Sequence record: SRR31156797_201 | Direction: 5' to 3' (one strand) | DNA length: 20,000 nt | Part shown: positions 1,356 to 17,500 of the stretch, in pieces | Position numbering within the stretch: position 1 is the stretch's first letter | Layout of the letters: each line of letters opens with the position of its first letter | Made by a program: the position numbers and the translations under genes | Notes under the pieces: generated by a model | The model's input: the letters and a program-made list of their open reading frames with translations, nothing else | Database searches by the model: none | What the model was told of the DNA's origin: nothing

Positions 1356-1481
1356 AGTATCTTGGAGATAATGGTAATTGTTAAAAATCCTTTAAATGTC
1401 GGAGTGAAGACATTTTTGACTTTTAAGTATATGTAAAAACAACTATTTTTGTAGTTTAAGTGTCGGACAAATTTTCAACTC

Positions 1482-3851
1482 ATGAAGTTAGATCAATTAA
1501 TATTGACCAATAAAGAAGTTCCTTTCAAGAAATCATTAAGTTTTCTTCCTTTGATTAAAAGAATTAAGGCAGAAACAGGTTGTAGTACAAGATCTTGTAT
1601 TCATGGTAAATCCATTTTGGAATTAGTTGAGAAAACACCTGAGTTAGCAAGAATTGACTTTCCTATTGAAGATACGGAGAGGTTTAAAGATGAAATTCAT
1701 CACCTGATGTCATATTTGATAACTCCAATTCAGTACGAAAATGGGATTGGAGTGGCTTCTACACCTTTCGACGATGATAATTTTTACCATACACCAAAGT
1801 ATTTGGAATTGTATAACAATGAAAATTATGAGATAGAATTGGTAGAGCAAAAGCATCAGGATGAGTGTTTTAAGACTTTCACGATGCTGATGTACGCATA
1901 CATGATGATCCTTCCGAAATATTACAATTTCGGATTGGAAATGGATTATTTGTTCATGTATAAAGTAACTGATAAACTTAACGGATTAGTTAAATATTAT
2001 AAACTGGAGTTTGATAATTCATGTTTAGAACTTAAATATGAAGGAAAACTTCCGAAGCTTAGCGAAGACCAAATTCATCAAATGATTAATGATCCATTGA
2101 ATATGGATTTTTGGCTTAAAACTCTTCCGCTTGACAAATTTACTTTCTGTGGATTTTTATCTTTTTGGTATGTTGATGTGACTCAAATAGAGGTGATCTC
2201 ATCTTTAAAATCGCAATTACTTGAAAAATCGGCAATCATTAATAAAGATAATTTTATTGATTTAGAACAAAGTATTCGCTCATTATTGTCATTGCCGAAT
2301 TTAAATTTAGGTGTAATTGCCATAGGTATGAATCAGGGGAATGTAGAAAACCCCTCTAATTTTTGGCATGGATTTTTAGATCCCAACAAGTATAAATGCG
2401 ATGCTTATCAAGGAACATTTTATGAAGAAGCTGGTCGCTCTAGTGCTCCTGAGTTAATAAATGATTTATCACAGGTAAAAAATCCGGGAAAAATTGAGAA
2501 GGCTTTACTAGATAAAGGAATTCGTAATATAAGTGTAATACCTTTAGAATTCGAGGGAGAACTAATTGGTATGATGGAATTGGGATCTACCAAAGCTTTT
2601 GATATCAATTTTACAAAACTGAGAATTATTAAAGATATTATTCCTGTTTTCTCGATTGCTCTGCAACGTACAAGTGATGAATTGAAAAATAAGATTGAAG
2701 CGACCATTAAGGAAGAGTGTACGGCAATACATCCAAGTGTTGAGTGGAGATTTCAGCAAGCTGCTGCAAATTTATTAGGGAAGAGAGTGGCAGGTGAAAA
2801 TGCAAGGATGGAAGAAATCGTATTCCCTAATGTTCATCCTTTGTATGGTGCAATTGATGTGCGTCATTCATCTGTGATAAGAAATCAAACCATTCAGGAT
2901 GATTTGGTGGAACAATTACAATTGATTCGTAAGGTTCTGACAGCGGTATACGAAATCAGGGAAATGCCTATTTACGATCAGTTGATTTACAAAATTGATT
3001 TCTTTATTAAGAGCATCCGGGATGGACTTTCATCAGGAGATGAAATGAATGTTTTAAATTTTGTTCGCCATGATGTTGAACCACTATTTTCTCATTTTGA
3101 AAAAGATGGGGATGAGGTAAGAAATGCAGTGAATATCTATAGGCAAAATATTGATCCTGAATTAAATATTGTATATAAACGACGTAAGGATTTTGAAGAT
3201 AGTTTAGGATTGATTAATGATTGTGTAACCTCTTATATAGAGAAAGAGCAGGAAAAAGCTCAATTAATGTTTCCTCATTATTTTGAAAAATATAGAACTG
3301 ACGGAGTAGAACACAATATTTATATCGGTCATAGCATTGCAAATAACCAAAGTTTTGATCGTATTTATTTGAAAAATCTACGTTTATGGCAATTGATCAT
3401 TAGTGCAGAGTTGGCACGAAAAACGAAGGCTCTTAAAAAATCCTTGCCAATTCCTTTGGATACGACTGGTTTGATCCTTGTTCACTCCCAACCATTAGCT
3501 ATACGTTTCCGTCAGGATGAGAAGCAATTTGATGTTGATGGAGCCTACAATATAAGATATGAAATTGTTAAAAAACGCATTGATAAAGCTGTAATAAAAG
3601 GAACAAATGAGCGATTAACACAGCCAGATATGCTTGCCATAATCTTTAGTCAGGAAAGTGAAATGACAGAGTATTTAAGGTATTTGGAATATCTAATTGC
3701 CGGAGATTATTTTGAAGATAAGATTGAACAACTTGACTTAGAAGATTTGCAAGGAGTATATGGATTGAAGGCTATTCGTGTGAAAGTGAAAAATGGACCG
3801 GAAGCAATTAATACCCTACAGCTTGCTGAAGATTTAAAAATGGATAATTAA
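1482..3851 (+). CDS. GAF domain-containing protein (789 aa) with a C-terminal region resembling a divergent class III nucleotidyl cyclase
   Basis: GAF signature 'GIRNISVIPLEFEGELIGMMELGS'. C-terminal motifs IDVRHS, EKYRTDGV, ILVHSQP, FDVDGAYN. No obvious signal peptide or TM segment. Confidence 0.75.
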   Translation: MKLDQLILTNKEVPFKKSLSFLPLIKRIKAETGCSTRSCIHGKSILELVEKTPELARIDFPIEDTERFKDEIHHLMSYLITPIQYENGIGVASTPFDDDNFYHTPKYLELYNNENYEIELVEQKHQDECFKTFTMLMYAYMMILPKYYNFGLEMDYLFMYKVTDKLNGLVKYYKLEFDNSCLELKYEGKLPKLSEDQIHQMINDPLNMDFWLKTLPLDKFTFCGFLSFWYVDVTQIEVISSLKSQLLEKSAIINKDNFIDLEQSIRSLLSLPNLNLGVIAIGMNQGNVENPSNFWHGFLDPNKYKCDAYQGTFYEEAGRSSAPELINDLSQVKNPGKIEKALLDKGIRNISVIPLEFEGELIGMMELGSTKAFDINFTKLRIIKDIIPVFSIALQRTSDELKNKIEATIKEECTAIHPSVEWRFQQAAANLLGKRVAGENARMEEIVFPNVHPLYGAIDVRHSSVIRNQTIQDDLVEQLQLIRKVLTAVYEIREMPIYDQLIYKIDFFIKSIRDGLSSGDEMNVLNFVRHDVEPLFSHFEKDGDEVRNAVNIYRQNIDPELNIVYKRRKDFEDSLGLINDCVTSYIEKEQEKAQLMFPHYFEKYRTDGVEHNIYIGHSIANNQSFDRIYLKNLRLWQLIISAELARKTKALKKSLPIPLDTTGLILVHSQPLAIRFRQDEKQFDVDGAYNIRYEIVKKRIDKAVIKGTNERLTQPDMLAIIFSQESEMTEYLRYLEYLIAGDYFEDKIEQLDLEDLQGVYGLKAIRVKVKNGPEAINTLQLAEDLKMDN

Positions 3852-3876
3852 AATTATTATTACTATAAAAATAGGG

Positions 3877-3902
3877 AAGCCTTTCGAAAGAGAGGTTTTT
3901 TT
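3877..3902 (+). terminator. Intrinsic terminator
   Basis: AAGCCTTTC-gaaa-GAGAGGTTT plus T tract; GNRA loop. Confidence 0.8.
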
Positions 3903-4050
3903 ATTCTTTATGATATTGAATATTAACAATTGATACATTTTTAAGTTTAAAAAGGAATTTGTATTATTGTTTGAAGAAATGGTTTTGTATTCAAGCTATT
4001 AAAAATAGAATCCCCACACATTTTATATTTATTTCTGAACTTTAAATTTA

Positions 4051-6261
4051 ATGAGGTACATTTTACTTTGTCTGATTGTTGTCTCTTTCTTAACAAAAGG
4101 TGTTGCGCAATCAAATGTTGATAGTTTACAAAAGAAAGAACGACCAAAAATTGGTTTGGTATTAAGTGGTGGTGGTGCTAAAGGTTTTGCCCATGTTGGT
4201 GTACTTAAGGTGATTGATGAGTTGGGAATTCCTATTGATTATATTTCCGGGACGAGTATGGGGAGTATTATTGGTGGCTTTTATGCAATTGGTTATTCTG
4301 CAGTCGATATTGAAAAAATGATTCTAAGTCAAGACTGGGATAAACTTTTAGCAGATGAGGTATCCCGTAAACATGTCCCTTTTCTTGCCAAGCAAAATTA
4401 CGAGAGACATGTGTTGTCATTTCCGATTAAGCCTAAAGGTATTGAATTGCCAAGTGGAATTGTGAAAGGTCAAAATGTAATTAATTTATTTGAGCGATTA
4501 TCTATAGAATATCATAATGTTGATAATTTTAGAAAATTACCCATTCCTTTTGTTTGTGTTGCTACAGATTTAGAAACGGGAGAGGCCGTAATTTTGGATA
4601 AAGGATATTTGCCTGAAGCCATGAGAGCAAGTATGGCAATTCCAACCGTGTTTTCACCTATCGAAATAGATGGAAAATTGTTAGTTGATGGAGGAATGGT
4701 GAACAATTTCCCAGTAAAGGAAGTGGTTGAAATGGGAGCCGATATTGTTATTGGTGTTGATGTTCAGGCAGGACCAAAATCAAAGGAGGAATTAAATTCT
4801 TTTTTAGATGTTATCAATCAAACAGTATCACTAATGTCTTTAAAAGAATTTAAGAAAAATATTGACTTTGTTGATGTTTACATTAAGCCTGACATTAATA
4901 ATTATTCAGTTGGGAGTTTTGATGAAGCTGATTCCTTGATCCGAAAAGGAGAGGAAATCGGACGAACTTTTATTCCTGCCTTAAAAGCTTTAAAAGATAA
5001 ATATCAATTAAAGAAAAATAAGATAAAAAAATACAAACCACCTGTTGATTCAACAACTTACTACGTTAAAAATATTGAATTTGAAGGTTTAAATGAAGTA
5101 AGTAATTCTCTCTTATCGGGTAAATTAAATTTAGATACTCCTGGTGAAGTGAGTTTGTATCAATTGCAGAAAGGTATTAATCGTGGATTTGGAAGTAGAT
5201 ATTTTGATCATGTCGACTTTAAAATGGTAGGGAATAAGACTAAATCTCTTCAAGTTCGTGTTAAAGAAAGAACAACTAAAAGATTTAATGTGGGATTACG
5301 GTACGATTCCGATAATCAAGCTGGTGTTTTGCTGAATACCACATTTCGTAATAAGTTAAGAAGTGGATCGCAATTATCCTTCGATTTAAAACTGGCAGAG
5401 AGTCCACGATTTGTTACAACCTATTCTATTGATAATGGATTAAAACCGGGACTCACACTACAAGCAGAATATAACGACTGGGAAGTTAATGCTTATGAAG
5501 ACGGAGAAAAAGTAGGGAATTTCGATTTAGATTACGTTAGGTTGGATATAAATACACATTCCATTTTGAAAGAATCATATTCTGTTGGAATTGGTGCAAA
5601 GGCAGAATACTATAAGGTTGCTTCTAATTTTACTATGGTTAATATTCCGGAAAATGAAACTAATGAAGATGATTTTTTCTTTTCATATTATGCATTTTTA
5701 AGGGTGGATTCACATGAAAAGGCTTACTATCCTAAAAAAGGAGTTAGTTTGTATGGAGAATACAAATTGGTAACAAATAATGGAGCAAGTTTGGATGGAA
5801 TGGAGAGACCTGCTTCTATAGCCTATTTAAAATTTCAAAAAGCGATTAGTGTAAGTCCTGCATTAACAATTTATCCAAAGTTTTATGGTAGAGTTATTTG
5901 GGGTAAAAATATTCCAGATTTTTTTATGACTTATACCGGAGGTATTGATCAAACGGATTATTTTGATATTCAGATTCCATTTGTCGGACTGGATAGAATG
6001 GAAATGGCTACTACAAATTCATTTGTGTTCAGAAGTGATTTTCAATACGAATTATTTAAAAATAACTACTTGGTACTAAAAGCCAATTTTGGAAAACTTA
6101 CTGATGACGTTAATAATTCTTTAGATGAAGGAGAATGGATTAGAGGTATAGGTTTAACTTATTCATACAATAGCTTGATTGGTCCTATGGAGTTTTCTTT
6201 AATGTATTCGAATAAAAAAGAGAAAGTTTTGAATTACGTTAGTTTAGGTTTTTGGTTTTAA
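4051..6261 (+). CDS. Patatin-like phospholipase with POTRA and BamA/TamA-type beta-barrel (PlpD/type Vd architecture)
   Basis: Signal peptide; patatin motifs GGGAKG, GTSMG and DGG; POTRA-like 'VKNIEFEGLNEVS...VKER'; beta-rich C-terminus ending in 'SLGFWF'. Confidence 0.88.
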   Translation: MRYILLCLIVVSFLTKGVAQSNVDSLQKKERPKIGLVLSGGGAKGFAHVGVLKVIDELGIPIDYISGTSMGSIIGGFYAIGYSAVDIEKMILSQDWDKLLADEVSRKHVPFLAKQNYERHVLSFPIKPKGIELPSGIVKGQNVINLFERLSIEYHNVDNFRKLPIPFVCVATDLETGEAVILDKGYLPEAMRASMAIPTVFSPIEIDGKLLVDGGMVNNFPVKEVVEMGADIVIGVDVQAGPKSKEELNSFLDVINQTVSLMSLKEFKKNIDFVDVYIKPDINNYSVGSFDEADSLIRKGEEIGRTFIPALKALKDKYQLKKNKIKKYKPPVDSTTYYVKNIEFEGLNEVSNSLLSGKLNLDTPGEVSLYQLQKGINRGFGSRYFDHVDFKMVGNKTKSLQVRVKERTTKRFNVGLRYDSDNQAGVLLNTTFRNKLRSGSQLSFDLKLAESPRFVTTYSIDNGLKPGLTLQAEYNDWEVNAYEDGEKVGNFDLDYVRLDINTHSILKESYSVGIGAKAEYYKVASNFTMVNIPENETNEDDFFFSYYAFLRVDSHEKAYYPKKGVSLYGEYKLVTNNGASLDGMERPASIAYLKFQKAISVSPALTIYPKFYGRVIWGKNIPDFFMTYTGGIDQTDYFDIQIPFVGLDRMEMATTNSFVFRSDFQYELFKNNYLVLKANFGKLTDDVNNSLDEGEWIRGIGLTYSYNSLIGPMEFSLMYSNKKEKVLNYVSLGFWF

Positions 6262-7433: not shown

Positions 7434-8597
7434 TTAAATTGAGTCTATTTCATTTGAGAATATCGAGCTAGCAATATCTCTTAAATTATATCTTGATGCC
7501 ATTGCCTCGCCATAGGCTCCTGTAGTTCTTATGGCAATTAAATCATTCCTTTTAGTTGCAGGCAAATCTACAGATTTACCAAAACAATCGGATGATTCGC
7601 AAATAGGTCCAACCACATCATATTTATCTATAGAACCATTTGAACTAATATTTTCAATTTTGTGATAGGCTTGATAAAGTGCAGGTCGTAATAATTCTGT
7701 CATTCCAGCATCTAAAATGGCGAACTTGGTGTTTACACCATTTTTAACGTAAAGAACTTTAGAAATTACACTTCCACACTGGGCTACAACCGAACGTCCT
7801 AGTTCAAAATGAAGTTCTTGCTTTGGTTTTAAATTCAAAAATTCATCAAAGATTCCAAAGAATGTTGGAAAATCAGGAATCGGATTTTCATCCGGATTTT
7901 CATAATCAACTCCAAATCCTCCTCCTACATTAATATGGTCTACGAATACTTGTCGGTTGGTAAACCATTCCTGAATTTCATTAATTCTTAAACAAAGACC
8001 TTTAAAAACACTTAAGTCGGTTATTTGAGATCCAATATGAAAGTGTAAACCAATTAGTTTAAGGTTTTTTAGGACTTGCAGATTTTCTAAAACACTTTCA
8101 AATTCCCATCGATTAATTCCAAATTTATTTTCTTCGATTCCAGTTGTAATGTAATGGTGTGTATTGGCATTTACATTCGGGTTGATACGAATGGCAATTC
8201 TTGCTGTCTTACCCGCTTCTTCTGCCAATTCGTTAATCAATTCCATTTCTGGTATCGATTCACAATTGAAACAAAAGATATCAGAATCAAGAGCAGTTCG
8301 AATTTCTTTATCTGATTTACCTACACCTGCATAAACGATCTTATCCGATGTAAATCCACATTCTAAAGATCGGTTGATTTCATTACCACTCACACAATCG
8401 GCACCAAATCCATAGGATTGAATTTTTTTCATGATACCATGATTTGCATTTGCCTTTACGGCATAGTGAACATGATATCCATACTTAGAGGATTCGGTTT
8501 GAATTGTATTAAGAGTTTGCTCCAAAATATTCATATCATAGAAATAGAATGGAGTATCTATATTATTGAATTTTTCTATTCTCTTACTGTTGAACAT
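7434..8597 (-). CDS. lysA: Diaminopimelate decarboxylase
   Basis: YAVKAN (PLP lysine), HFHIGSQ, GGGFG, ELGR, RPALY, GPICESSD, GAYG. Confidence 0.97.
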   Translation of the reverse strand: MFNSKRIEKFNNIDTPFYFYDMNILEQTLNTIQTESSKYGYHVHYAVKANANHGIMKKIQSYGFGADCVSGNEINRSLECGFTSDKIVYAGVGKSDKEIRTALDSDIFCFNCESIPEMELINELAEEAGKTARIAIRINPNVNANTHHYITTGIEENKFGINRWEFESVLENLQVLKNLKLIGLHFHIGSQITDLSVFKGLCLRINEIQEWFTNRQVFVDHINVGGGFGVDYENPDENPIPDFPTFFGIFDEFLNLKPKQELHFELGRSVVAQCGSVISKVLYVKNGVNTKFAILDAGMTELLRPALYQAYHKIENISSNGSIDKYDVVGPICESSDCFGKSVDLPATKRNDLIAIRTTGAYGEAMASRYNLRDIASSIFSNEIDSI

Positions 8598-8624
8598 GAT
8601 TAAAAATTGGTTGAAAGTGTAACA

Positions 8625-9935
8625 TTAGAACAAATGATTACTTAATGCCTGAAGAGCAGCAATCTTATCTTCCTGATTTACTAAAACAGAGATGTTGTGC
8701 TTGCTTCCGCCATATGAAATCATACGCAAAGGGATATTTTCAAGAGCACCCAAAACTTTCTTAGCACTTCCTGCTGATTCCGAAATAAAATCACCAACAA
8801 TACAAATAATTGATTGATTTTGATCTATTTCAACACTTCCGTATTTAGCCAATTCGCTTTCTATTTCCTTCAAATTCGAATCATCATCAATGGTTAAAGA
8901 AACGGCAACTTCCGATGTGGTAATCATGTCTATCGGAGTCTTGTAAATTTCGAATACTTCAAAAACTTTGCGCAAGAATCCGTAAGCTAAAAGCATACGA
9001 CCTGATTTAATTTTGATTGCTGTAATTCCATCTTTAGCAGCAATAGCTTTAATCCCTTTTCCAACCAGATCATTGGAGATTAAGGTTCCTGAATCTGTTG
9101 GACTTAGAGTGTTTTTTAAGCGTACAGGTACACTTTGTGATTTACAAGGCATGATACTGGAAGGGTGCATAATTTTAGCACCAAAATAGGCTAACTCAGC
9201 AGCTTCGTCGAAGGATAATTGTTCAAGTGCTTTGGTATTTTCAACATATCTTGGATCGTTGTTGTGAAAACCATCTATATCAGTCCAAATTTGAACCTCT
9301 TCTGATTGCAATACAGATCCTATTAATGAGGCTGTGTAGTCACTTCCACCTCTCTTTAAATTGTCGATTTCGCCATAAACATTTCTACAAATAAAACCCT
9401 GGGTAATGTATAATTTGTGTTCTGTTTCTTCGCTAAGAATTCGGTCTAAATTTTCTTTGATATAGAAATAATCTGGTTCACCATCCTTATCTATTCTCAT
9501 GAAATTTAGAGCAGGTAGGAACACTGAATTAACTCCAGATTCTGACAAATAGTAGTGAAACATAGCAGTTGAAATCAATTCTCCCTGAGCCAAAATCGCC
9601 TTTTCCTGAAGTGTGGTAAAGCTTCGGAAAACAAAATTTCGGATGTAATTAAAATGAGATGTAATTAGCTCATTTCCTTTTGATTTATATTCTTCACTTG
9701 CATATAAATCGACTATTCTTTCTCGATATTGCTGTTCTAACTCAGTGATCTTTTCGTTAGCTAAATCATTCTGTTCCTGATACAATAGTTCCGTAATTTC
9801 AACCAGAGCATTTGTGGTTCCTGCCATTGCTGATAAAACGATAATTCTGGACTCATCCGCCTGGACGAGTTGAGCCAAATTTTTAATTCTCTCAGGCGAT
9901 CCTACTGATGTTCCGCCAAATTTTAAAACTCTCAT
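8625..9935 (-). CDS. lysC: Aspartate kinase, monofunctional with C-terminal ACT domains
   Basis: VLKFGGTSVG, VLSAM, RGGSDYTA, IWTDIDG, EAAELAYFGAKIMHP, TTSEVAVS; 27 bp upstream of lysA. Confidence 0.96.
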   Translation of the reverse strand: MRVLKFGGTSVGSPERIKNLAQLVQADESRIIVLSAMAGTTNALVEITELLYQEQNDLANEKITELEQQYRERIVDLYASEEYKSKGNELITSHFNYIRNFVFRSFTTLQEKAILAQGELISTAMFHYYLSESGVNSVFLPALNFMRIDKDGEPDYFYIKENLDRILSEETEHKLYITQGFICRNVYGEIDNLKRGGSDYTASLIGSVLQSEEVQIWTDIDGFHNNDPRYVENTKALEQLSFDEAAELAYFGAKIMHPSSIMPCKSQSVPVRLKNTLSPTDSGTLISNDLVGKGIKAIAAKDGITAIKIKSGRMLLAYGFLRKVFEVFEIYKTPIDMITTSEVAVSLTIDDDSNLKEIESELAKYGSVEIDQNQSIICIVGDFISESAGSAKKVLGALENIPLRMISYGGSKHNISVLVNQEDKIAALQALSNHLF

Positions 9936-15588: not shown

Positions 15589-15915
15589 ATGAAGAAACTA
15601 GAACTTTTCGAAACAGAACAACAGGAAATAGCTGCAATGGCAAAGGCTTTATCTCATCCGGCGCGAGTTGCAATATTGCAATTCCTCGCAGCAACACCTA
15701 CTTGTATTTCTGGTGATATATCTGATTTTCTTCCTTTAAGTAGAACAACCGTTTCTCAGCATTTAAAGGAATTAAAATCAATAGGATTGATAAAGGGAGA
15801 TGTGGAAGGATTGAAGATTAAGTATTGTTTGAATGAGGAGGGAATAAGTAAATTGAAGAGTTTATTTGGAGATTTTTTAAGAGAAATAACTCCTACAGAA
15901 AATAATGTGTGTTAG
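15589..15915 (+). CDS. arsR: ArsR/SmtB family repressor
   Basis: KALSHPARVAIL, TVSQHLKELK..GLI; first gene of the ars operon. Confidence 0.9.
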   Translation: MKKLELFETEQQEIAAMAKALSHPARVAILQFLAATPTCISGDISDFLPLSRTTVSQHLKELKSIGLIKGDVEGLKIKYCLNEEGISKLKSLFGDFLREITPTENNVC

Positions 15916-15993
15916 TGAAATTTAAAGAAGAACGGAACAAGACTCAATAGATGAATGTCTTGTTCATTCTTAAATCTAAAAGAGAATAGAAGA

Positions 15994-16416
15994 ATGAAAG
16001 TATTGGTTTTGTGTACAGGAAACTCATGTAGAAGTCAAATGGGTGAAGCAATTTTAAGAGAGATTAATCCAGAATTGGAAGTAGTTTCGGCGGGAACAAA
16101 AATTGCAGATCAAGTGCATCCATTAGCCGTGAAAGCTATGGAAGAAATTGGTGTTGATATCAGCTCTCAACGTCCAAAAATGGTGGATGAGTTTTTGGAA
16201 GATGGCGTTGATTATTTGATCTCTGTATGTGGTGGAGCAAAAGATGCTTGTCCTGCCTTTTTAGGACCTGTTGGAAAGCGTTTGCACATTGGTTTCGACG
16301 ATCCAGCTTATGCTGAAGGAACAGAAGAAGAGATATTTGAGGTGTTTAGAAGAGTGAGAGAAGAAATTCGTAGAGATTTCGCAAAATTTAACGAGGAGTA
16401 CATCCTAAACAAATAA
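15994..16416 (+). CDS. arsC: Arsenate reductase (LMW-PTPase fold, thioredoxin-coupled)
   Basis: [14 protein letters not shown]...ACP, FDDPA. The start is probably the ATG at 15994 (MKVLVL). Confidence 0.92.
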
Positions 16417-16420
16417 GAAA

Positions 16421-17500
16421 ATGGGCGCGTTAAACAAGAAATTATCATTTCTGGACAGATATCTTACTTTATGGATATTTGCTGCGATGGCTATAGGTGT
16501 AGGAGCAGGTTATTTCTTTCCATCGATGGCAGGCTTTTGGAATAAGCTATCGGTAGGAACAACCAATGTACCTATTGCAATAGGTTTGGTGATCATGATG
16601 TATCCACCTTTGGCTAAGGTTAAGTACGAAGAATTAAAAGATGTATTTAAGAATCGTAAAATTCTGCTTCTTTCTTTGGTGCAGAACTGGATATTGGGTC
16701 CAACTTTGATGTTTGCATTGGCAATTATTTTCTTACAGGACTATCCTGAATACATGACAGGATTGATTTTGATAGGTTTGGCAAGATGTATTGCTATGGT
16801 AATTGTTTGGAACGATTTGGCGAAAGGAGATCCGGAGTACGCAGCTGGATTGGTTGCTTTCAATAGTATTTTTCAGGTATTGTTCTTTTCTGTTTATGCT
16901 TATGTATTTATAACCGTATTACCAGAATATTTTGGTTTGCAAGGATCGGTAGTTGATATTACCATGGGCGAAATCGCCGAAAGTGTATTGATCTATTTGG
17001 GAATTCCATTTTTTGCAGGCATGATTACTCGTTACTTTGGTATTAAAGCCAAAGGCAAAGAGTGGTATCAAAAGAAATTCATTCCAAAAATTAGTCCGCT
17101 TACCTTGTTTGCTTTGTTGTTTACTATTTTTGTGATGTTCTCTTTAAAAGGAGAATACATTGTGCAATTGCCATTCGATGTGGTTCGCATAGCAATTCCA
17201 TTGGTCATTTACTTTGTAATCATGTTTTTGATTTCCTTTTTTATGGGGAATAAATTTAAAGCAGGATATGCAAAAACAACAAGCTTGTCGTTTACAGCAG
17301 CGAGTAACAATTTCGAGTTGGCTATTGCAGTTGCCATTGCGGTATTTGGAATCAATTCGGGTGTTGCCTTTGCAGCAGTAATTGGTCCATTGGTTGAGGT
17401 ACCGGTTTTAATTGCACTCGTTAATGTTGCCTTACGATTTAAAGACAAGTATTTTAAGGGAAAGGTAGATGTTGTAAAGTGTGCGAATGATGTAAAATAA
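16421..17500 (+). CDS. acr3: ACR3 family arsenite efflux transporter
   Basis: [47 protein letters not shown]; multiple TM helices. Confidence 0.96.

Follow-up and report, generated by a model that had tools for sequence, protein, structure and literature searches.

A 20,000-nt stretch of DNA from sequence record SRR31156797_201, referred to here as the window, carries at positions 1482..3851 (+) a gene that the open reading frame list and its translation give as a single open frame of 789 amino acids. The original prediction, made from the letters alone, took the product to be a soluble GAF protein hiding a divergent class III nucleotidyl (adenylyl) cyclase domain. Here, we report structure predictions, homologue comparisons and a genome survey that bear on this reading. 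Prediction and comparison reveal a class III cyclase fold in the C-terminal part of the protein, an almost invariant pair of aspartates at the positions where such cyclases bind metal and, in Bacteroidota, genomic co-occurrence with a membrane protein that joins an HD hydrolase to a PycTM domain. On this evidence, we consider it probable that the protein is a divergent cyclase of class III type, gated by its GAF domain and producing a cyclic nucleoside monophosphate (cNMP).

The sequence is AT-rich (G+C roughly 32%), and the protein places the source organism within the Marinifilaceae (Bacteroidota), because its closest named relatives come from Marinifilum, Labilibaculum and Ancylomarina. The gene follows a flavodoxin-like reductase gene and precedes a gene for a patatin–Omp85 fusion and then one for a DUF6268 protein. 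Upstream, TATTTTTG (1444..1451, +; 30 nt before the ATG) resembles the Bacteroidota −7 promoter element TAnnTTTG, a likeness to which we give low weight. Downstream, a terminator-like hairpin with a T run (3870..3905, +), a pattern match from a consensus scan, begins 19 nt past the stop codon and stands between the gene and the patatin–Omp85 gene; an inverted repeat with a T run can also be read 3′ of the upstream flavodoxin-like gene. These signals suggest that the gene is transcribed on its own.

Domain layout and family

A full-length AlphaFold2 model (predicted local distance difference test (pLDDT) 92.6, predicted template modelling score (pTM) 0.83) divides the 789 residues (1482..3851, +) into an N-terminal domain, a GAF domain, a signalling helix and a cyclase homology domain (CHD) with a helical insert. 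The N-terminal domain (residues 1–231; 1482..2174, +) is a confidently modelled, mixed α/β unit with zero matches in Pfam, NCBIfam or PDB sequence searches and no usable match in the Atlas; the structure searches barely sampled these residues. The GAF domain (residues ~232–404; 2175..2693, +) was recognised by structure, with VIA-align matching 3o5y_B (Z 12.8, root-mean-square deviation (r.m.s.d.) 3.0, 140 of 147 residues, model span 249–402) and 3k2n_B (Z 11.4, model span 232–407), and by the family profile, which matched PDB GAF domains at E 7.4e-6 (3p01_A). The single sequence lends weaker support, its Pfam GAF_2 match (E 0.0033) scoring 18.1 bits against a cut-off of 28.6 bits, with sub-threshold GAF matches at residues 310–376. 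Fold and family profile thus agree with the proposed GAF domain. The protein is also expected to be soluble, as had been proposed: a Kyte–Doolittle scan in 19-residue windows peaks at 1.31, and no hydrophobic stretch has the length needed to span a membrane.

A signalling helix and a kinked helix (residues 405–446; 2694..2819, +; helices 387–412 and 418–436 in the model) lead from the GAF domain to the CHD, and presumably resemble the cyclase-transducer element. To measure conservation we used an alignment of 148 sequences (A1), comprising the query, 140 of 150 listed representatives and 7 closer relatives; the 10 representatives left out were truncated or matched in two stretches. Unless stated otherwise, counts of conserved residues below refer to these 148 sequences. 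Conservation climbs sharply in the C-terminal half, and residues 405–446 already contain T414 (146), H417 (146), P418 (127), W422 (148) and F424 (148). Several cyclase structure matches reach back to residues 415–419 (6r3q_A, 5m27_A and 4clf_A), so the helix preceding β1 is also shared with cyclases.

The family is large. Among 7999 candidates scored, 4073 proteins matched at E <= 1e-3, and the best 120 were nearly all 770–830 amino acids long; of the representatives of 50% clusters, 1396 passed E <= 1e-3, and 689 of these also reached E <= 1e-30. At least 584 loci in species genomes encode a member, and their hosts range over Bacteroidota, Ignavibacteria, Rokubacteria/Methylomirabilota, Gemmatimonadota, Rhodothermia and proteobacterial metagenome-assembled genomes (MAGs). 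Public names for its members are ‘GAF domain-containing’ or ‘hypothetical’. Precomputed tables attach PF27174 to many homologues, under the Atlas label ‘YeeD’, which is carried by 32%, 33% and 23% of the members of the three nearest Atlas clusters. We found no mention of PF27174 in the literature, and ‘YeeD’ combined with GAF returned one irrelevant paper; if Pfam already describes PF27174 as cyclase-like, the novelty of the family would be lower.

A search for shorter homologues returned mostly fragments from short contigs. A few forms of 398–431 amino acids starting at query residues 364–399, and so holding the helix and cyclase domain only (P0279, P0339, P0333, P0360, P0302 and P0373), lie on contigs of 45 kb–2.4 Mb and may be sensor-less variants or split genes.

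Fold and conserved residues of the C-terminal domain

Modelled alone with AlphaFold2, residues 440–789 gave a pLDDT of 95.2 and a pTM of 0.90. The chain runs from a strand (447–460) through a set of helices (463–596), a β hairpin (600–605/608–616) and a long helix (627–654) to three strands, a helix (691–702), a strand (717–722), another helix (725–740) and two final strands. A Foldseek search of the PDB with this domain model listed 34 rows, all 34 of them nucleotide cyclases, with Cya2 (2w01_B, E 2.6e-5) as the best match and 21 matches at E <= 1e-3. An independent VIA-align search of 48,161 representative chains also led with Cya2 (2w01_A; Z 12.2, r.m.s.d. 3.2, 183 of 201 residues aligned), followed by 3et6_B (Z 12.0), 8jsz_B (11.8), 3r5g_B (11.7) and 1wc1_A (11.4); its top 20 rows comprised 19 named cyclases and one unnamed hypothetical protein (7sua_A). 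A second look over the top 1000 Foldseek chains gave 50 cyclases in 50 rows (Z 10.6–12.5), with 172 chains at Z >= 8. In VIA-align, generic ferredoxin-like proteins reach Z 8–9.5 over only 74–95 residues, whereas cyclases align over 164–193 residues, nearly their whole length, at Z 10–12.5. Searches with the full-length model agree (GAF Z 12.8, CHD Z 12.1), and their top Foldseek match, 6fht (E 1.6e-7), aligns over both GAF and CHD for 350 residues. The C-terminal domain is thus predicted to have a class III cyclase fold, as all of these comparisons indicate and as the original prediction had anticipated.

We also considered a GGDEF diguanylate cyclase. The hairpin reads K-Y-R-T-D-G-V-E (family consensus K-Y-K-T-D-G-V-E), Pfam gave no GGDEF match, and neither GGDEF nor other palm enzymes occur among the 50 rows of the VIA-align search or of the second look, and this candidate was rejected. 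GGDEF chains (4zmu, 6et7 and DosP) are confined to the Foldseek list for the full-length model, where their GAF/PAS parts may carry the match.

In class III cyclases, metal is bound by two aspartates, the first closing β1 and the second sitting in the β2–β3 turn. In our models, β1 (residues 447–462; 2820..2867, +; strand 447–460 in both models) closes with D459 (codon 2856–2858) and is followed by S463/S464. The rest of the CHD (residues 597–771; 3270..3794, +) opens with the β2–β3 hairpin (strands 600–605 and 608–616), which contains K603 and places T606 and D607 (codon 3300–3302) in its turn, and continues with β4–β8, which carry D684, N690, R692, R699 and R766; structure matches span residues 444–771. 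The alignment with 1cs4_A begins at model residue 440 opposite 377 and that with 1wc1_A at 446 opposite 1004, so that an ungapped β1 would put D459 opposite residues 396 and 1017, respectively, which we take to be the first metal aspartates of the adenylyl cyclase C1 domain and of CyaC. D459 and D607 are each kept in 146 of the 148 sequences; a single pair of sequences has lost both. Around them, S463 (147), S464 (136), R467 (146), T606 (139) and G608 (148) are conserved, and farther along so are N690 (137, with 11 Asp), R692 (141), R699 (147), R766 (148) and K763 (82 Lys and 47 Arg).

A script located the motifs on which the original prediction had been built at residues 455–464 (YGAIDVRHSS), 601–609 (FEKYRTDGV), 664–671 (LILVHSQP) and 681–692 (KQFDVDGAYNIR), and found D459, K603, D607, H668, D684, N690 and R699 to be numbered as claimed. 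Such short motifs would be expected by chance in a single sequence; their conservation in the 148 aligned homologues lifts them above it. The proposed metal-binding role of the two aspartates accords with both their conservation and their position in the fold.

Between β1 and β2 lies the helical insert (residues 463–596; 2868..3269, +), a bundle of long helices (463–492, 496–514, 520–542, 544–556 and 567–596) whose roughly 134 residues stand where canonical cyclases have the short α1/α2. The long helical stretch pointed out in the original prediction recurs throughout the family: D459 and D607 are 146–153 residues apart in 148 of 148 sequences, against about 40 in canonical domains, which makes the insert a fixed family feature. 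Its conserved residues include R467, already mentioned, D474 (148), E521 (146), R568 (147) and Q594 (147). A two-copy complex prediction for residues 440–789 with ATP and Mg returned a score of 0.00 and a mark of 0.32, the predictor having left the homologue alignment unused, an outcome that speaks neither for nor against a dimer.

Genomic partners and neighbours

We surveyed 301 evenly sampled Bacteroidota genomes for co-occurrence of the family with PF18967 (PycTM). The family is present in 47 of these genomes, as a single match in 46 and as two in one. A PycTM match accompanies it in 47 of 47, compared with 77 of the 254 genomes that lack it, and the PycTM form of ~400 amino acids in 45 of 47 compared with 29 of 254 (Fisher p 3e-31, uncorrected for shared ancestry). 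Of the 47 genomes, 24 have the two genes within 2.5 kb of each other, 7 have them 2.5–15 kb apart, another 7 have them on one contig but at a greater distance, and 9 have them on separate contigs. Strands read by eye show that 20 of the 24 close pairs are convergent, and in two examples the 3′ ends touch or overlap. The three PycTM partners that we examined combine HD and PycTM, the HD metal residues are invariant in all six aligned partners, and the HD domain of one partner (L095:1273-2460 (+)) faintly matches PDEase_I (E 7.8e-4; 19.6 bits, under the 24.8-bit cut-off). A Marinifilum relative encodes a 397-amino-acid HD + PycTM protein on the same contig as the cyclase gene and 268 kb from it; in this Marinifilaceae-type lineage, the cyclase gene lies apart from its presumed partner.

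According to the bioRxiv preprint 10.64898/2026.08.12.744502, the cNMP cyclases of Pycsar and Pucsar systems usually have three-transmembrane (3TM) PycTM/PucTM proteins as their partners, and this makes a cNMP the most economical reading of the product. A literature search on GAF-linked CHDs, Bacteroidetes class III cyclases and PycTM with HD found no paper describing the family or the pairing.

We sought a conserved operon in 80 related loci and found no neighbour family common to more than 15, so the gene stands alone in most such lineages. Among 147 immediate neighbours from 77 loci were PAP2 phosphatases (10 loci, Hymenobacter group), polyphosphate kinases (3), patatin–Omp85 proteins (2), canonical cyclases (2), a cNMP-binding protein (1) and an HD + PycTM protein (1). 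The polyphosphate kinases are of type 1 and lie immediately upstream in Cytophagales-type loci (L009, L013 and L063). The two canonical PF00211 cyclases, one with HAMP, also lie immediately upstream, in two deltaproteobacterial MAGs (L065:4137-5756 (-) and L080:4143-5702 (-)). At a locus from a Cytophagaceae MAG, the next gene downstream of the family gene encodes a protein with a cyclic-nucleotide-binding domain and a histidine-kinase-type ATPase domain (L048:8416-9813 (+)); a 53%-identical relative of this protein is encoded near the family gene in another MAG (L023:10782-11732 (-)).

In the window, the gene directly downstream (4051-6261, +) codes for a patatin-like phospholipase joined to an outer-membrane barrel of the Omp85 type. 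This fusion also follows the family gene at two other loci (L001 and L002) and is found 2.6 kb downstream of it at a third (L007), and a calcineurin-like phosphoesterase–Omp85 protein or a relative is encoded nearby at six (L040, L062, L069, L063, L013 and L054); Omp85-fused hydrolases thus stand near the family gene at 9 of 80 loci and in the window. Genes for lysine biosynthesis come farther along the window, as do an ars operon and a two-component system. The first of these are an ACT-domain aspartokinase gene beside a gene for a pyridoxal phosphate-dependent decarboxylase of the ornithine/diaminopimelate/arginine family (7434-9935, -), likely a lysine-biosynthesis pair. The arsenic-resistance genes (15589-17500, +) encode an ArsR-type regulator, an arsenate reductase of the low-molecular-weight phosphatase type and an ACR3/SBF-family transporter.

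Mechanism, alternatives and meaning

If the favoured reading is right, the protein would be a soluble sensor–enzyme in which the N-terminal domain, the GAF domain and a signalling helix precede a very divergent CHD whose first helix has been expanded to the bundle of ~134 residues. Two chains would associate in the manner of other class III cyclases, which form head-to-tail dimers and have their active sites at the interface. D459 and D607 would hold two divalent metals, while the helix start at S463/S464 together with R467, R692/R699 and K763/R766 would hold the triphosphate, and the nucleoside triphosphate (NTP) would be cyclised to a 3′,5′-cNMP; ATP is a first guess at the substrate because of the K603/D684 pair. 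Binding of a ligand to the GAF domain may switch this activity through the conserved helix 405–446. In Bacteroidota, the signal would most probably act on, or be removed by, the HD + PycTM (pJV1-spdB3 3TM) membrane protein, which in the Marinifilaceae-type lineage would be encoded elsewhere in the genome.

Comparison with characterised cyclases brings out what is shared and what is not. The fold is common over nearly the whole domain with class III CHDs (PF00211; the guanylyl cyclase Cya2, 2W01; CyaC, 1WC1; CyaB, 3R5G; and mammalian adenylyl cyclase C1/C2, 1CS4) at Z 11–12.5, r.m.s.d. 3.0–3.2 and 179–191 residues. Shared features are the aspartate at the end of β1, the aspartate in the β2–β3 turn with a lysine four residues before it, an asparagine at the start of helix α4 and a helix leading into β1. 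The family differs from these CHDs in lacking a profile match, in separating β1 from β2 by a helical bundle of ~134 residues instead of the canonical stretch of about 40, in its T-D-G hairpin instead of the canonical G-D-[GA], and in its Asn-x3-Glu, with other Arg/Lys residues nearby, instead of Asn-x3-Arg. Cyanobacterial proteins of the CyaB1/CyaB2 type are GAF-regulated class III adenylyl cyclases. With these and with the phytochrome–cyclase fusion 6FHT the family shares the order of sensor (GAF), long helix and cyclase domain; it differs in its extra 231-residue N-terminal domain, its one GAF domain and its divergent, insert-bearing cyclase domain. A further candidate identity is class V adenylate cyclase, whose single founding member is Prevotella ruminicola AAC12946.1 (accession given in PMC10427991).

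With the Pycsar/Pucsar defence systems the family shares a cyclase-fold enzyme tied genomically to a PF18967 PycTM-type membrane protein, and Pycsar cyclase structures are among its VIA-align matches (8jsz_B, Z 11.8; 8jsf_B, Z 10.4; 7r65_A, Z 9.8). It differs in being nearly always single-copy and full-length across phyla, with a GAF sensor, and in having a partner that is fused to an HD hydrolase and mostly convergent or unlinked, not operonic. The candidacy of the gene as a defence cyclase (PycC/PucC) was rejected: it matches no PADLOC family at E <= 1, and its neighbours in the window are ordinary metabolic and envelope genes. The family looks like housekeeping signalling rather than a mobile defence island.

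Several observations weigh against the cyclase reading. The fold evidence itself comes wholly from a predicted model, and sequence comparison does not reach the known cyclases: PF00211 was unmatched even at E <= 10 in Pfam, NCBIfam gave no cyclase match, the family profile found no cyclase in the PDB at E <= 10 and a single-sequence PDB search returned nothing meaningful. Against 12 canonical cyclase domains, drawn from five relatives’ genomes in which a PF00211 search hit only loci other than that of the family gene, hhalign gave a probability of 0.65% (E 0.088, not significant). Its sole local match pairs D-I-R-x-S-S at the end of β1 with the canonical D-I-x-x-F-T; some canonical Bacteroidota cyclases read D-L-K-S-S-T here, near the family motif. 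Run separately, neither half of the domain matched significantly, and the one following the insert aligned at E 0.57 in a different register. That the domain might escape standard profiles on account of its long insert and unusual Asn/Arg spacing had been foreseen, and none of these searches recognised it. The active site also departs from the standard pattern. In class III cyclases, the transition-state asparagine and arginine sit on helix α4 as Asn-x-x-x-Arg. The family lacks this arrangement, the residue four after N690 being E694 (Glu in 141 sequences), with the conserved R692 and R699, either of which may fill the role, nearby, in keeping with the non-canonical spacing already suspected. 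Since the profile test failed and the canonical arginine spacing is absent, we file the family, on its sequence, apart from PF00211 proper. H668, put forward as a cyclase motif residue, is not conserved (60 His and 61 Gln). In class III cyclases, ATP is specified by a lysine four residues before the second aspartate together with an aspartate on β5. The putative counterparts K603 and D684 are both present in this protein; K603 is kept in 112 homologues (plus 17 Arg), D684 in 128 and both together in 97. Because they are less conserved than the catalytic residues, ‘adenylyl’ specificity is only a lead.

The genomic link has gaps of its own. The HD–PycTM gene was not found in the 20,000-nt window and lies within 6 kb at just 4 of the 80 related loci; of four non-Bacteroidota genomes searched, three, all MAGs, had no PycTM match; and 29 genomes carry the long PycTM form without the family. 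Moreover, the genomes of all five relatives contain ordinary PF00211 cyclases at other loci, which could feed the same partner. Cyclic-nucleotide enzymes are therefore not lacking in this lineage.

Some of these departures would suit a cyclase-fold catalyst with a different job, a nucleotidyl transferase whose product would be some other nucleotide, cyclic or linear, or a nucleotidylated substrate, and in which the insert would contribute to a new substrate site. The two aspartates are conserved, yet a conserved glutamate occupies the canonical arginine position; the insert is strongly conserved and fixed in length; and no profile of true cyclases recognises the domain. We nevertheless think this unlikely: every strong structural match is to a cNMP cyclase and extends over almost all of its target, the co-occurring PycTM partner is of a type known from cNMP systems, and N690, the basic residues and the serine pair after D459 suit NTP cyclisation. 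The missing arginine and the variable specificity positions might instead mark a pseudo-cyclase, an output module that binds nucleotides or is purely structural and relays its signal through protein contacts instead of a messenger. A precedent is 6YII, the Pseudomonas aeruginosa class III adenylyl cyclase-like ATP-binding protein, a cyclase fold without proven cyclase activity that is among the structure matches (6yii_A, Z 8.7, 195 residues). It is, however, a weaker match than the true cyclases, and the family keeps both metal aspartates almost invariantly. The aspartate pair, G608, S463, R467, R699 and R766 are kept in 146–148 sequences from several phyla, as is typical of a working active site, and the two sequences without one aspartate have lost both, as expected of a cooperating pair. 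A pseudo-cyclase is thus, in our view, quite improbable.

The fold itself might be an artefact of structure prediction or reflect a common ferredoxin-like core in an unrelated α/β domain, since there is no significant sequence similarity to cyclases and generic ferredoxin-like proteins also score at Z 8–9.5. This can be nearly dismissed, given the short reach of the generic alignments set against those of the cyclases, the high confidence of two independent model runs and the extension of the cyclase matches into the preceding helix, as in real cyclases.

Beyond the enzyme that we favour lies a more tentative idea, which we find attractive but think less likely than not: the family may be the enzyme that has been missing from a housekeeping cyclic-nucleotide circuit of Bacteroidota and neighbouring phyla, a synthase whose cNMP, perhaps other than cAMP, either controls the HD–PycTM protein or is broken down by it. 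If so, the PycTM effector module known as ‘phage-defence’ would have a conserved everyday counterpart. The tight co-occurrence provides a concrete, testable partner and ties ordinary signalling to the effector module of Pycsar and Pucsar. The fixed 134-residue insert in the catalytic core is unusual for the fold and may be a new regulatory or substrate-binding element. If the family is active, a whole branch of cyclic-nucleotide synthases, thousands of proteins, would be invisible to profile-based censuses of second messengers, which would then under-count the signalling capacity of Bacteroidota, Ignavibacteria, Rokubacteria, Gemmatimonadota and other lineages.

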